A stretch of 29,026 bases of DNA from Bacteroidales bacterium (GCA_034677845.1 JAXDCR010000003.1:1-29026), one strand, 5' to 3'; positions 22,218 through 25,981 are shown, numbered from the stretch's first letter. Program-made: numbers and translations. The notes: generated from the sequence alone by a model not told the origin.

Positions 22218-22300
22218 AATTCACTAAGGGGGTGCCTTAACATTAAGGGCTGAGATCATACCCTTAGCACCTGATCCGGGTAATGCCGGCGAAGGGATCG
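22218..22300 (+). ncRNA. TPP (THI-box) riboswitch aptamer
   Basis: GGGGGTGC...GGGCTGAGA...ACCC...ACCTGATCCGGGTAATGCCGGCGAAGGGA. P2 CTAAGGG(22224-30)/CCCTTAG(22261-67), P3 GCCTTAA/TTAAGGGC, P5 CCGG/CCGG. Confidence 0.97.
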
Positions 22301-22301
22301 G

Positions 22302-22331
22302 GCAACAGTGGGGATATCATTGTTGCTTATT
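22302..22331 (+). terminator. Candidate expression-platform hairpin of the TPP riboswitch
   Basis: GCAACAGTG-GGGATAT-CATTGTTGC (9 bp including one GU pair), followed by UUAUU, 24 nt before the ATG. Confidence 0.5.
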
Positions 22332-22354: not shown

Positions 22355-24751
22355 ATGAAACAGTTCATGCTGTTGATTGTATGCGTGCTTTGCATCATGC
22401 CTGCCAACGCACAGCTTGTCATTGAAGGCAGGGTGACAGGCACCCGGGAGGAACCGCTGATCGGGGCATATGTCTTTGTCAGCAACACCTACTATAAAAC
22501 CATGACTGATGATTCAGGCAGCTTCAGGATCGCAGATGTGAAACCAGGCATTTACAGGCTTACCGTGAGCTTCGTCGGATATGAAACCGCCGATGAAATT
22601 GTCGAGCTGACCGAAGACCTCCACATCAGGATCCGTCTTGTCGAATCCCCCGTCATGGGCGAAGCAGTTGTTGTTTCTGCGGTCAGGGCTTCCCAGAACA
22701 GTCCCACAACCTTTTCAACCCTGGGGAAGGAAGAAATCACCGTTCGCAACAAGGTGCAGGATCTCCCGCTGCTGCTGAACCAGATGCCGTCAGTGGTCAC
22801 CACCTCCGATGCCGGTACAGGCGTGGGGTATACAAGCCTTCGGATCAGGGGAAGCGACATCACCCGCATCAACGTCACCATCAACGGGATCCCTCTCAAT
22901 GACCCGGAGTCACATGCGGTCTACTGGGTTGACATACCCGATTTTGCCAGTTCAGTGAACAGCATTCAGGTTCAGCGTGGTGTCGGATCTTCCACCAACG
23001 GAGCCGGAGCTTTCGGAGCTTCCATGAACCTGGAGACTGGCACCGTCAGTTCGTCGCCTTACGCGAAGCTCGACCTGTACCTTGGATCTTTCGGCACCTG
23101 GAAAACTACTTTTCAGGGTGGTACGGGTCTGATGAGAGACCGTCTGTATGTTGAAGGCCGCGCCTCGGCTATCGGCTCAGATGGTTATATTGACCGGGCA
23201 AGTTCCGCCCTGGGCTCCTATTTCATGCAGGGAGGTTATCACGATCACAATACGCTGGTGAAAGCCATTGTTTTTGGCGGAAATGAAAAGACATACCAGG
23301 CATGGTACGGCGTTGACAGATCAACCCTGGCAAGCGACAGGACCTTTAACTGGGCCGGTGCCATCTACCGCCCGGATGGAACCATCGGGTTTTATGATAA
23401 CCAGACTGATAACTACAGGCAGCAACATTTTCAACTTCATTTCTCCCGGATGTTGAAACCGTCGGTCAACCTTGGCCTGGCGGCACATTATACCCGTGGC
23501 AAGGGGTATTACGAGGAATATATGCAGGACCAGGATTTCTCGGATTATGCGCTTGAACCATTGCTTTTCGGTCTCGACAGCGTGCTCCTCGAAGACAGAT
23601 ATCAATATGTTTACAGCGATACGGTCGATCAGACCGATCTCATCAGACGGAGGTGGCTTGATAACCATTATTACGGCATGACCTGGTCACTTCGGAAAAT
23701 CGCCTCCCGGTCTGACCTGATATTCGGGGGATCTTACAGCCGGTATGAAAAAGCCAGGCATTTCGGCGAGATAATATGGGCAGAATTTGCCAGCCAGAGC
23801 GGCATCCGCCATCTTTATTATGACAATATGGCCGGCAAGTCGGACCTGAATTTTTACTTTAAGGCATCCTTTGTTCCGGTTAAAAATCTGACTCTGCACG
23901 GTGACCTGCAATTCAGGCATATTTCATACCGGGTGAAAGGTACGGAGGACTATGGAAGGCCTGTTGCCATCCTGGAAAAATTCCTTTTCCTGAATCCGAA
24001 AATCGGTCTTTCGCTTGACACAAGGTTCGGCAACATATACGGATCATACGGTATGGCTCACAGGGAGCCCATCAGGGATGATTACCTTGATGCCGCCCCT
24101 GGTGAAAAACCCGAGGCCGAAGTACTGGGTGATTTTGAATGCGGTATCCGGAAGTATGCTTCAAGGTTTACCTATGCTGTTGACCTGTTTCTGATGAGCT
24201 ACCGTAACCAGCTGATATTGACAGGTGCCATTAACGACGACGGGGCTTATATAAGGAAAAATGCGGGGAGGAGCTACCGTACGGGACTGGAGGTCACCGC
24301 AGGTTACCGGCTGGCACAGATGCTGTACCTCGAAGGCAACATGGCGTTGATGAGGAGCGGGACTGACAACAAAGAACCGGATACAGCCGGCATGATGAGA
24401 ACATACAGAAATGTCGACATTGCCTTTTCACCAAGGGTAACGGGCGGTTTGCAGGCAGACATAAATCCCCTGAAAAACCTTCAGATCAGCTGGCAGCTCA
24501 AATTTGTGGGCAGCCAGTACCTGGATAACACAGGGAACCGTGACCTCATGCTTAAAAAATATACCGTGCAGGATGCGGGACTAAAGTACCTGCTTGCTGC
24601 CGGAAACCTAGGAAGTATTGAAATCAGCTTCCAGATAAGCAATTTGCTGAATGCCAAGTACGAATCCAACGGTTATGTATGGAACAACGCACCGTTTTAC
24701 TACCCCCAGGCAGGGATTCATTTCCTGGGGGGACTTTCCGTTAAAATCTGA
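22355..24751 (+). CDS. TonB-dependent outer-membrane receptor, probable thiamine transporter
   Basis: Signal peptide, carboxypeptidase-regulatory-like N-domain, plug (SLRIRGSD..RINVTINGIPLND..SIQVQRGVGSSTNG.GAFGAS), beta-barrel. Sits directly under a TPP riboswitch. Confidence 0.93.
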   Translation: MKQFMLLIVCVLCIMPANAQLVIEGRVTGTREEPLIGAYVFVSNTYYKTMTDDSGSFRIADVKPGIYRLTVSFVGYETADEIVELTEDLHIRIRLVESPVMGEAVVVSAVRASQNSPTTFSTLGKEEITVRNKVQDLPLLLNQMPSVVTTSDAGTGVGYTSLRIRGSDITRINVTINGIPLNDPESHAVYWVDIPDFASSVNSIQVQRGVGSSTNGAGAFGASMNLETGTVSSSPYAKLDLYLGSFGTWKTTFQGGTGLMRDRLYVEGRASAIGSDGYIDRASSALGSYFMQGGYHDHNTLVKAIVFGGNEKTYQAWYGVDRSTLASDRTFNWAGAIYRPDGTIGFYDNQTDNYRQQHFQLHFSRMLKPSVNLGLAAHYTRGKGYYEEYMQDQDFSDYALEPLLFGLDSVLLEDRYQYVYSDTVDQTDLIRRRWLDNHYYGMTWSLRKIASRSDLIFGGSYSRYEKARHFGEIIWAEFASQSGIRHLYYDNMAGKSDLNFYFKASFVPVKNLTLHGDLQFRHISYRVKGTEDYGRPVAILEKFLFLNPKIGLSLDTRFGNIYGSYGMAHREPIRDDYLDAAPGEKPEAEVLGDFECGIRKYASRFTYAVDLFLMSYRNQLILTGAINDDGAYIRKNAGRSYRTGLEVTAGYRLAQMLYLEGNMALMRSGTDNKEPDTAGMMRTYRNVDIAFSPRVTGGLQADINPLKNLQISWQLKFVGSQYLDNTGNRDLMLKKYTVQDAGLKYLLAAGNLGSIEISFQISNLLNAKYESNGYVWNNAPFYYPQAGIHFLGGLSVKI

Positions 24752-24848
24752 TGTACGGTCCGGATCGCTGTAAAATAACCAGCAGAAATACTGGCGATTG
24801 CTATTAATTTGTTAAAATTTTGAAAAAAATCAAGTTTCTGCAACAACT

Positions 24849-24865
24849 TTGGCACAATTTTCGTT
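24849..24865 (+). promoter_or_regulatory. Sigma54 (-24/-12)-type promoter
   Basis: TTGGCACAATTTTCGTT has a perfect -24 TTGGCAC. The -12 position (GG-N10) reads GT instead of GC. Upstream DNA is AT-rich. Predicted start ~24876. Confidence 0.6.
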
Positions 24866-24875
24866 ATAGATATCA

Positions 24876-24985
24876 AGGGTTTTATTAGTTAGTTAGGGTT
24901 AATAAATTTTTCAGGGTTTTCGTAAATTTTAGGTTTAATCTTTAGGGTTATGAAACCAGGGACAACCAAGGTCCCTGGTTTTTTT
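24876..24985 (+). ncRNA. Putative sigma54-dependent small RNA with repeated AGGGUU motifs
   Basis: AGGGTT at 24876, 24895, 24913 and 24944, and AGGTTT at 24931, in a U-rich, C-poor, non-coding stretch bounded by a promoter and a terminator. Confidence 0.6.
24953..24985 (+). terminator. Intrinsic terminator
   Basis: AAACCAGGGAC-AACCAAG-GTCCCTGGTTT followed by TTTT (7 T in total). Confidence 0.9.
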
Positions 24986-24992
24986 ATATGGT

Positions 24993-25034
24993 GCAGACAT
25001 CAGTCTGACCCATGACGCAGACATCAGTCTGACC
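24993..25034. repeat. Perfect 18-bp direct repeat x2, each with an internal palindrome
   Basis: GCAGACATCAGTCTGACC at 24993-25010 and 25017-25034. Each contains CAGAC-N4-GTCTG. Confidence 0.9.
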
Positions 25035-25165
25035 GCACCGCATCTCCTGGCTGTTCACATCCGTCGCAATTGTTTTAACGGCAGCTGTTAAAATTAATGC
25101 GGCAAGTAATGTATTGAATGTAAATTTTTGCTTTTTTTGCAAAGGAATCCGACAATCTGGCAACC

Positions 25166-25981
25166 ATGATGGAGCTTTACAGGGAGATATGGAATAAATA
25201 TTGCAGTTCAGTATGCTCCATCAGGTTCCTGAATGGCAGCGATATTGAGATTGCGGTTTTTACCGGTTTCAGGAGCGGCAATTTCATTTTCACAACAGAT
25301 CTGATCAACAGATTCCAGAAGGCTGAGTTTGTCGAAATCAGGTTCGTCAAGCATGACGGATACAGTGTCTTTGCGCAGGAGCGTCTTTCTCTCCATGATT
25401 TCAACGAACAGATTATCACGACCTGCGACCAGGAGATTATGGGCTTTGCAGTAATTTCAGCCACTGATTTAAACTTTGAGCAGGTTGCCCCGCTCATCCT
25501 GGCTGAGAATCACCCCATTTCAATAGGTGACCCCCTAGCGCTGATGGGCTTTCAATTCAACACCCCGAGTCTTGCCATAAAATCGGGAATTGTCTCTGCC
25601 TTTATCCACCGTAACCATTCACGTCTGATTCAGTTTGACGGCTCCGTGATCTGGGGCAATTCCGGAAGTCCCCTTATTGATTTACAGTCAGGTGAAGTGA
25701 TTGGCATTCTGGGTCATTACCTTGATAAGAAACACAGGTCTTACGAAAAAATCCAGGAGATCAGCAATGCCAACATCAAAATGCTGGAACAGGCTCTTGG
25801 CAAGCTTGACGTTTCCGGGGTAGACCCCATCCAGGTGCTGATCGCATGGGAAAAACAAATCCAGCAGTTATTCGCTGATACTTACAAGACTACCGGTTAT
25901 GGTATGGGCATTGCCCTTGATTACAGGGAAATCAGACAGCTGTTAAAGTCTTGCGGAATTGATTCCTCTTACAGGGATTAA
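25166..25981 (+). CDS. Trypsin-like (S1C) fold protein, probably catalytically inactive
   Basis: IGDPLALMGF, SGIVSA and IQFDGSVIWGNSGSPLIDLQSGEVIGI match the S1C C-terminal lobe. The His and Asp motifs are degenerate. No signal peptide. Confidence 0.8.
   Translation: MMELYREIWNKYCSSVCSIRFLNGSDIEIAVFTGFRSGNFIFTTDLINRFQKAEFVEIRFVKHDGYSVFAQERLSLHDFNEQIITTCDQEIMGFAVISATDLNFEQVAPLILAENHPISIGDPLALMGFQFNTPSLAIKSGIVSAFIHRNHSRLIQFDGSVIWGNSGSPLIDLQSGEVIGILGHYLDKKHRSYEKIQEISNANIKMLEQALGKLDVSGVDPIQVLIAWEKQIQQLFADTYKTTGYGMGIALDYREIRQLLKSCGIDSSYRD

Follow-up and report, generated by a model that had tools for sequence, protein, structure and literature searches.

A conserved gene for a predicted small non-coding RNA in uncultured Bacteroidales, read as a distant relative of FopS

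Genes and Features of the Locus

The whole stretch of DNA analysed here, called the window (29,026 nucleotides), is a complete contig of a Bacteroidales MAG that is 88.5% complete, with an assembly size of 2.4 Mb. A cluster of short AGGGTT motifs, recognized in an initial annotation made from the sequence alone, sits in the intergenic gap 24752-25165 between an open reading frame for 798 amino acids, a TonB-dependent receptor read as one for vitamin B1, and one for 271 amino acids. The neighbours other than the receptor gene are housekeeping genes; they encode a trypsin-fold protein, an enzyme of the CCA-adding/poly(A) polymerase type and alanyl-tRNA synthetase. The features of the locus are:

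22218-22314, + strand: TPP riboswitch (RF00059, 67.7 bits versus a gathering score of 54.3), preceding the receptor gene
22355-24751, + strand: gene for the TonB-dependent receptor, 798 aa (Pfam: CarbopepD_reg_2, Plug, OMP_b-brl_3)
24839-24844, + strand: −35-like element TGCAAC, ECF-type (boxes found in 76 of 83 unique loci)
24850-24855, + strand: TGGCAC, sigma-54 −24-like, within the ECF-type spacer (29 of 83 loci)
24862-24866, + strand: −10-like element CGTTA, ECF-type (TGCAAC-N17-CGTTA, 24839-24866)
24871-24985, + strand: predicted sRNA transcript of ~115 nt, its 5′ end (± ~5 nt) inferred from promoter geometry
24876-24881, + strand: motif 1, AGGGTT (homologues have GGGTTAAT here)
24885-24900, + strand: TTAG-TTAG-TTAGGGTT run, read in the sequence
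24895-24900, + strand: motif 2, AGGGTT, inside TTAGGGTTAA (homologue alignment)
24913-24918, + strand: motif 3, AGGGTT, inside TCAGGGTTTT (homologue alignment)
24927-24947, + strand: core TTTTAGGTTTAAT-NN-TTAGGG, FopS-like module containing motifs 4 and 5
24931 (start), + strand: motif 4, AGGTTT, inside the core
24944 (start), + strand: motif 5, AGGGTT, inside the core
24956-24985, + strand: Rho-independent terminator (8-bp G+C-rich stem, 7-nt loop, seven T)
25166-25981, co-oriented: downstream open reading frame, 271 aa (partial Trypsin_2 match only; syntenic in 54 loci)

The initial annotation had read five motifs at these starts, spaced by 19/18/18/13 nt, together with the TTAG-TTAG-TTAGGGTT run, the TGGCAC box and a strong terminator, and in all of this it is borne out. 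The stem of the terminator is formed by pairing of 24956-24963 with 24971-24978 and is followed by the T-run 24979-24985; it is the sole terminator-like site on the + strand within 24600-25300. AGGGTT is present four times within 74 nt versus about 14 times per strand across the 29-kb window. The number expected per 74 nt is ~0.04, from which a Poisson probability of four or more of ~1e-7 per position is obtained. Three AGG[GT]TT within 70 nt are encountered at only three further places in the 2.4-Mb genome, all of which look, judged from their sequence context, like coding sequence, so that the present locus looks like the sole non-coding site with such a motif cluster.

Outside the terminator the RNA is predicted to fold weakly (frequency of the MFE structure 0.0012, z −1.9), and structure prediction finds nothing conserved in the first ~85 nt, in agreement with the initial view of a largely single-stranded body. 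Two other readings of the region were tried. A G-quadruplex was rejected in view of the 15-28 nt loops between the four GGG runs, not all of which are conserved, and a small peptide was rejected for lack of conservation of its ATG at 24950; among the homologues there is no conserved open reading frame in the sRNA region.

Conservation of the RNA

The locus is, judged by sequence comparison, a real and conserved gene for a predicted non-coding RNA of about 115 bases in uncultured Bacteroidales of anaerobic digesters. With a 151-nt query, blastn finds homologues in 30 of the 34 same-genus genomes and, beyond the genus, in both other genera of the family that were sampled as well as in a few further families; in most relatives there is a single hit per genome. 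Their alignment has a near-invariant core, conserved G-rich units upstream of it, and terminator strands that change together. The core reads UUUUAGGUUUAAU-NN-UUAGGG, in which only NN varies, and it is kept in 27 of the 29 blastn homologues, which were retrieved independently of the pattern. When 185,579 species genomes were scanned for the exact pattern, 102 stretches were obtained, of which ~85 are true copies, all from uncultured Bacteroidales or Bacteroidota MAGs; the others are C-termini of a conserved GTPase gene and coding sequence of Helicobacter. It should be noted that the invariance of the core within the pattern-scan set is a consequence of the search pattern itself. The public runs in which the sRNA sequence occurs are anaerobic-digester and sludge metagenomes, and in the four public "RNA" runs it is present as eight low-depth contig pieces that are flagged as probably DNA.

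The terminator helix covaries: in 68 sequences 96.7% of the cells are paired, as compared with 38-59% in slid controls, and seven of the eight pairs have compensatory double changes. The initial annotation had made its reading depend on the conservation of the motifs at related loci, and indeed all 24 full-length homologues have 5-8 RGG(G)UU units each. A covariance model built here on the 88-nt 3′ module (R1) finds one full copy in the window's own genome (82.9 bits; the next match in this 88.5% complete genome has 25.9 bits) and matches in 10 of the 151 genomes sampled across the order.

Relationship to FopS and GibS

At the gathering score the only Rfam family found in the whole window is the TPP riboswitch; no family reaches its threshold on the sRNA, as the initial annotation had supposed, and at a relaxed E-value there are, besides FopS, chance-level matches only. 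The comparison with FopS that had been proposed was the right lead, since the 3′ half of the sRNA is a distant FopS-like module. FopS (RF04319) is a paralogous sRNA family of Bacteroides thetaiotaomicron with GibS as a relative; FopS RNAs pair near the start codon of susC and so repress its translation, whereas the RRM protein RbpB, to which they bind, relieves this repression (Ruttiger et al., 2025, PMC11697453).

The FopS model aligns end to end with 24904-24988, although with only 16.5 bits versus the gathering score of 56. In at least six same-genus genomes it scores 25-29 bits exactly on the sRNA, being the top match in some of them only, and in three other families there are intermediate scores of 33-44 bits; true FopS RNAs are found in G037, a genome of a different family, which has five copies with 60-78 bits. 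Conversely, R1 recognizes a true FopS with 27.1 bits (E = 0.002) and exact overlap. The two models thus match each other reciprocally, below threshold. What the RNAs have in common is the order U-rich/UUUUUCA, UUU(A/U)AGGUU(U)AAU, UAGGGUU, hairpin/terminator (in the FopS sequence U-rich/UUUUUCAUGG, UUUAAGGUUAAU, UAGGGUU and hairpin, the same blocks being present in the sRNA 3′ half), and that the host is here, too, a member of the Bacteroidales with RRM_1 proteins.

The differences are considerable. FopS RNAs are 65-70 nt long, whereas the sRNA is ~115 nt long and has three extra motif units on its 5′ side. FopS RNAs have a conserved R1/R1′ seed (about consensus positions 1-21, with UUUUUCAUGG) at their very 5′ end, which is not so in the sRNA, where of this seed only UUUUUCA is present, ~35 nt inside the RNA, and where CAU of the FopS seed is CAG in the window and CGU, CUC, UGU or CUA within the clade. 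FopS promoters are canonical, with TAnnTTTG at −7, and a true FopS locus (L140) carries TATCTTTG at the promoter, whereas TAnnTTTG is absent ahead of the sRNA, which has AAC-N17-CGT, an ECF-type promoter. Finally, there are 12-15 FopS paralogues per genome versus a single full copy of the sRNA plus one weak paralogue, and the sRNA is fixed beside a receptor gene with a TPP riboswitch and has as hosts environmental and digester organisms of other families. To our knowledge, FopS and GibS have so far been described in gut Bacteroidaceae only, where they were discovered by BLAST. We therefore read the sRNA, from matches that are sub-threshold in both directions, as a distant relative of FopS/GibS and not as a member, because it departs from FopS in score relative to the cut-off, 5′-terminal seed, promoter type, copy number and taxon.

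The weak paralogue lies in the own genome, G000, at a contig end (C290:1-78, − strand; locus L153). It resembles the 3′ module of the sRNA (R1, 25.9 bits) and carries UUAGGUUAAU, UUUUAGGUUUAU, UUAGGGU and a G+C-rich terminator, and therefore a second FopS-like RNA is probably encoded in this genome. Another type of small RNA with the same units, UAGGUUUAGUUAAU ... UUAGGGUUAAGGUUG, and a terminator is seen in two other genomes (L145:28-99 in G011, and L151:1504-1575, − strand, in G007); with ~29 bits in the FopS model and ~25 bits in R1, this type suggests a small family of paralogous RNAs within the genus.

With respect to RNA-binding proteins, the expectation of RRM proteins together with a lack of Hfq and CsrA agrees with what is found: the genome has two genes for RRM_1 proteins, one at C19:3155-3428 and one on C253, and Hfq and CsrA were not found in it (88.5% complete). 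RbpB recognizes the motif GUAGGAUA in vitro and bound, at 5 µM, a probe with three GUAGGAUA repeats (bioRxiv 10.1101/2021.04.27.441718). With this motif the repeats of the sRNA have UAGG alone in common. The 3′ UTR of one RRM_1 gene (C19:3155-3428) contains a 24-nt stretch (C19:3569-3592) that is 88% identical to 24902-24925 of the sRNA; at E = 0.17 this similarity may be due to chance.

Promoter of the sRNA

The promoters recognized by ECF sigma factors are characterized by AAC at −35 and CGT at −10; for example, SigW of B. subtilis recognizes TGAAAC-N16-CGTA. Upstream of the sRNA, TGnAAC-N16/17-CGTT is present in 76 of the 83 unique loci, and its distance from the 5′ region that is conserved in the RNA does not vary; AAC and CGT are 16 nt apart in 34 loci and 17 nt apart in 41. 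It is retained, together with the RNA, in G020, where the upstream receptor gene has been lost.

The initial annotation had assigned the promoter to sigma-54 and had viewed the locus as a self-contained unit. As a conserved non-coding RNA gene with its own terminator this unit stands, but of the −24/−12 promoter only the −24 half is there, and control by sigma-54 is not upheld. Ten nucleotides after the GG of TGGCAC there is GT and not the conserved GC, and therefore the −12 box reads TCGTT as compared with TTGCW. TGGCAY occurs in 29 of the 83 unique loci versus 76 for the ECF-type boxes; among the 54 loci from which it is missing, the AAC/CGT boxes persist, and they include same-genus loci (L011, L012, L019) that have all RNA motifs and both boxes but not TGGCA.

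The full sigma-54 proposal is that an RpoN-dependent promoter drives a decoy RNA that does not base-pair but titrates, in the manner of CsrB, RsmZ and CrcZ, an RRM or cold-shock protein. The −24 element TGGCAC is perfect and its position suits a start near 24876, and the spacer TGGCAYGRTTTT is nearly invariant in the window's clade, which is beyond the conservation of an ordinary spacer and counts against the ECF reading. The genome contains rpoN and at least five genes for sigma-54 activators (PF00158) as well as ~16 genes for ECF-type sigma factors, and therefore either factor is available. The RNA, moreover, is unstructured with at least five UAGG-like units, RbpB does bind a probe with three copies of GUAGGAUA, and the decoy-associated proteins Hfq and CsrA of other bacteria were not found in the 88.5% complete genome. 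Besides the −12 element and the distribution of TGGCAY, however, it speaks against this proposal that the one clean intergenic sigma-54-like site in the genome has TTGCA, that neither a sigma-54 activator gene nor an upstream activator site is seen adjoining the locus, and that FopS RNAs, which are the closest characterized relatives, act by base-pairing and are antagonized by RbpB rather than titrating it. Genome-wide, a loose ECF motif turns up no more often than in controls (30 versus 31), and TGGCAY-N6-TGCW is found 50 versus 11 times, the excess being almost wholly within coding sequence. All in all, from sequence comparison we hold it to be quite likely that the promoter of the sRNA is of the ECF type and improbable that it is of the sigma-54 type, what remains being left to another factor or to both; a sigma-54-driven decoy appears equally improbable.

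Upstream of the −35 box there is an A/T-rich block (24806-24832; TTAAAATTT..AAAA), which in the genus reads TTCTTAAAATTTC(T/A)TAAAA and which may be an UP-like element or the site of a regulator.

Candidate Cognate ECF Sigma Factor

Among the ECF sigma genes of the genome, the one at G000:C149:1047-1628, which has its best scores with SigM/SigW/SigY-type models, is conserved with 72-90% identity in 25 of the 30 genus genomes searched. At 21 of 27 loci in the genus, TGAAAC-N17-CGTATAA lies ~190-230 nt upstream of its orthologue. This promoter-like site overlaps the beginning of the divergent uvrA gene, within its first codons. The synonymous positions of the uvrA codons under the boxes (GTT-TCA and TTA-TAC) are frozen in 18 genomes, whereas adjacent codons for Gly, Ala, Arg, Val and Leu are free to vary, which points to a constraint at the nucleotide level, i.e., to a promoter. 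When a PWM built from 19 sigma-gene sites of other genomes is applied, the own sigma-gene site ranks first and the sRNA promoter ranks 46th of ~4.8 million positions. The spacer of the sigma-gene site reads ATGGCAT in several genomes and includes, in G002, a 13-mer identical to the one in the sRNA promoter of G002 itself, which makes TGGCAT look like part of the spacer in this class of ECF promoters and not like a sigma-54 box. The motif was not found upstream of the orthologue in one subclade of the genus (L201-L205), in L187 and in five other families, and beyond one part of the genus the assignment of this ECF factor holds only weakly.

The sigma gene itself has a leader of ~220 nt with conserved blocks (C149:854-1046, locus L181, and the orthologous loci L182-L207). 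A Shine-Dalgarno-like box, AAGGAGGT, and a TTG start codon are present, which is unusual for Bacteroidota.

Independent Gene or Part of an mRNA

An orthologue of the receptor (37-60% identity) is found directly upstream of the sRNA and on the same strand in 82 of the 97 loci with enough flank, and the arrangement of TPP riboswitch and receptor recurs in L081 and L124; in the distant L075-type clade a riboswitch match is below the threshold (48.4 versus 54.3 bits). With a perfect-stem finder, a terminator between the stop codon of the receptor gene and the sRNA promoter was not seen in 55 of 62 unique loci, the window included, and therefore read-through from the receptor gene could also supply the RNA. 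These findings are the basis of the view that the element is mainly the 3′ UTR of the receptor mRNA, as its terminator or stabilizer or as a processed product, the level of which follows the TPP riboswitch. It is also in line with this view that in a subclade (L055, L079, L087, L101, L109) the core lies 136-187 nt past the stop codon and an ECF-type motif is missing, and that among the FopS RNAs FopS-14 is derived from a 3′ UTR; the small subclade without the motif may form its RNA by read-through only. If the element were mainly a 3′ UTR, however, one would not expect promoter boxes that are kept, in 76 of 83 loci, at a fixed distance from the conserved 5′ region, nor 15 loci, including that of the nearest relative G020, in which another gene is upstream and promoter and RNA are kept, nor receptor orthologues of four other families without the sRNA module downstream. 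We regard the 3′-UTR view as rather unlikely. It should be noted that the two routes to the RNA, from its own promoter and via the 3′ UTR of the receptor mRNA, are not mutually exclusive.

In the L075-type clade the leader of the receptor gene (L075:5324-5640, − strand; similar loci are L071, L078, L126 and others) contains a conserved hairpin, CTATCCG...CGGATAG. The hairpin would sequester the start codon and is likely to be an expression platform.

On its other side the sRNA is followed by the co-oriented gene for the trypsin-like protein (25166-25981), which is conserved in 54 loci. The element could thus be thought of as the leader of this gene, a protein-dependent attenuator with the repeats as protein site, comparable to those of TRAP, HutP and PyrR. 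Repeated triplet-containing motifs ahead of a terminator would fit, as would a weak Rfam resemblance to a PyrR site and a His leader, although the scores of 14-17 bits are far under the cut-offs. A conserved anti-terminator pairing is absent, however, and the sequence of the terminator varies freely while the motifs are fixed; from the terminator to the start codon there are ~180 nt; and in the wider family the RNA is conserved but the downstream gene is not. An attenuator therefore appears very unlikely.

Just past the sRNA terminator there is an 18-nt direct repeat, GCAGACATCAGTCTGACC, the two copies of which (24993-25010 and 25017-25034) are 6 nt apart and each contain the inverted repeat CAGAC/GTCTG. 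A protein that acts on the downstream gene could bind to these repeats.

Predicted Mode of Action

The predicted function of the sRNA is base-pairing of the FopS kind, binding of an RbpB-like RRM protein via the UAGG motifs, or both, and we infer that the FopS-like mode is the most likely mechanism. Overall, we lean towards a gene for an independently transcribed, trans-acting sRNA of ~115 nt that has an ECF promoter and combines FopS-like pairing with a platform for an RRM protein. Transcription would start ~7-10 nt after the CGT of the TGnAAC-N16/17-CGTT promoter, which would probably be read by the SigW/SigM-like ECF factor encoded at G000:C149:1047-1628 and not by sigma-54. The single-stranded, G/U-rich body would, by analogy with FopS, pair with translation-initiation regions of mRNAs for envelope proteins or transporters, and an RbpB-like RRM protein, one of the two encoded in the genome, would bind to the platform formed by the repeated UAGG(G)UU units and would modulate the pairing activity; especially the invariant core that is common to FopS could be the contact surface for the RbpB-like protein. 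The outcome would be a riboregulator controlled by envelope stress and comparable in function to the sigma-E-dependent sRNAs of Proteobacteria.

A search for pairing partners did not single out targets. Over 3318 start regions from 2016 crude gene calls, the duplex energies calculated for the sRNA are no better than those for reversed or shuffled RNAs; contiguous Watson-Crick or G-U complementarity over 13 nt is found 2072 times as compared with 1156-5507 times for shuffled RNAs; and the start region of the adjoining receptor gene ranks 2814th of the 3318. An anti-start-codon seed, UUUUUUC(A/G)U, pairing with AUGAAAAAA, was also considered; it suits the L075-type clade and FopS but was rejected here since the clade of the window does not conserve it.

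It is possible that the sRNA has a pure decoy role, and the extra motif units are indeed what such a role would lead one to expect. In its strongest form the proposal would be that the sRNA is the first ECF-sigma riboregulator described in Bacteroidota and that its UAGG(G)UU array is a multi-site decoy for abundant RbpB-type RRM proteins. If this were true, envelope stress would reset post-transcriptional control globally by a CsrB-like switch, in a phylum that lacks CsrA and Hfq, which is physically tied to the locus of the vitamin-B1 outer-membrane receptor. We consider this unlikely.

Comparison with Known Systems

Provided that the assignment of the promoter is right, the sRNA resembles MicA, RybB and MicL, the sigma-E (ECF)-dependent sRNAs of Proteobacteria, in that an ECF factor directs the synthesis of a small RNA ending in a terminator; the promoter of MicL is also located at the 3′ end of another gene, and the role to be expected is a lowered synthesis of envelope proteins. 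This does not mean that the RNAs are related. There is no sequence relationship, Hfq was not found here, and the likeness is an analogy of mechanism, not membership. In a 2026 review of commensal sRNAs an ECF-dependent sRNA is not listed for Bacteroidota. If confirmed, the locus would be a handle on how envelope stress is coupled to post-transcriptional control in this phylum.

With CsrB and RsmZ, which act on CsrA, and with the sigma-54-dependent CrcZ, which acts on Hfq/Crc, the sRNA has in common a short purine-rich motif that is repeated along a small RNA. The motifs of these RNAs, however, are either A-rich or presented as GGA by the loops of hairpins; neither CsrA nor Hfq was found here, and dependence on sigma-54 is unsupported.

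The closest comparison is that with FopS. A FopS-related module is present in many uncultured Bacteroidales of digesters and sediments, and it is rewired relative to FopS: it is a single copy, is longer by the extra motif units, is fixed behind a TonB receptor gene with a TPP riboswitch, and is also under an ECF-type promoter, probably that of the conserved SigW/M-like sigma factor. Its near-invariant 21-nt core is a candidate for an RNA element recognized by RRM-type chaperones or by conserved targets. On the sequence evidence, the sRNA gene is a new, rewired variant of the FopS kind.
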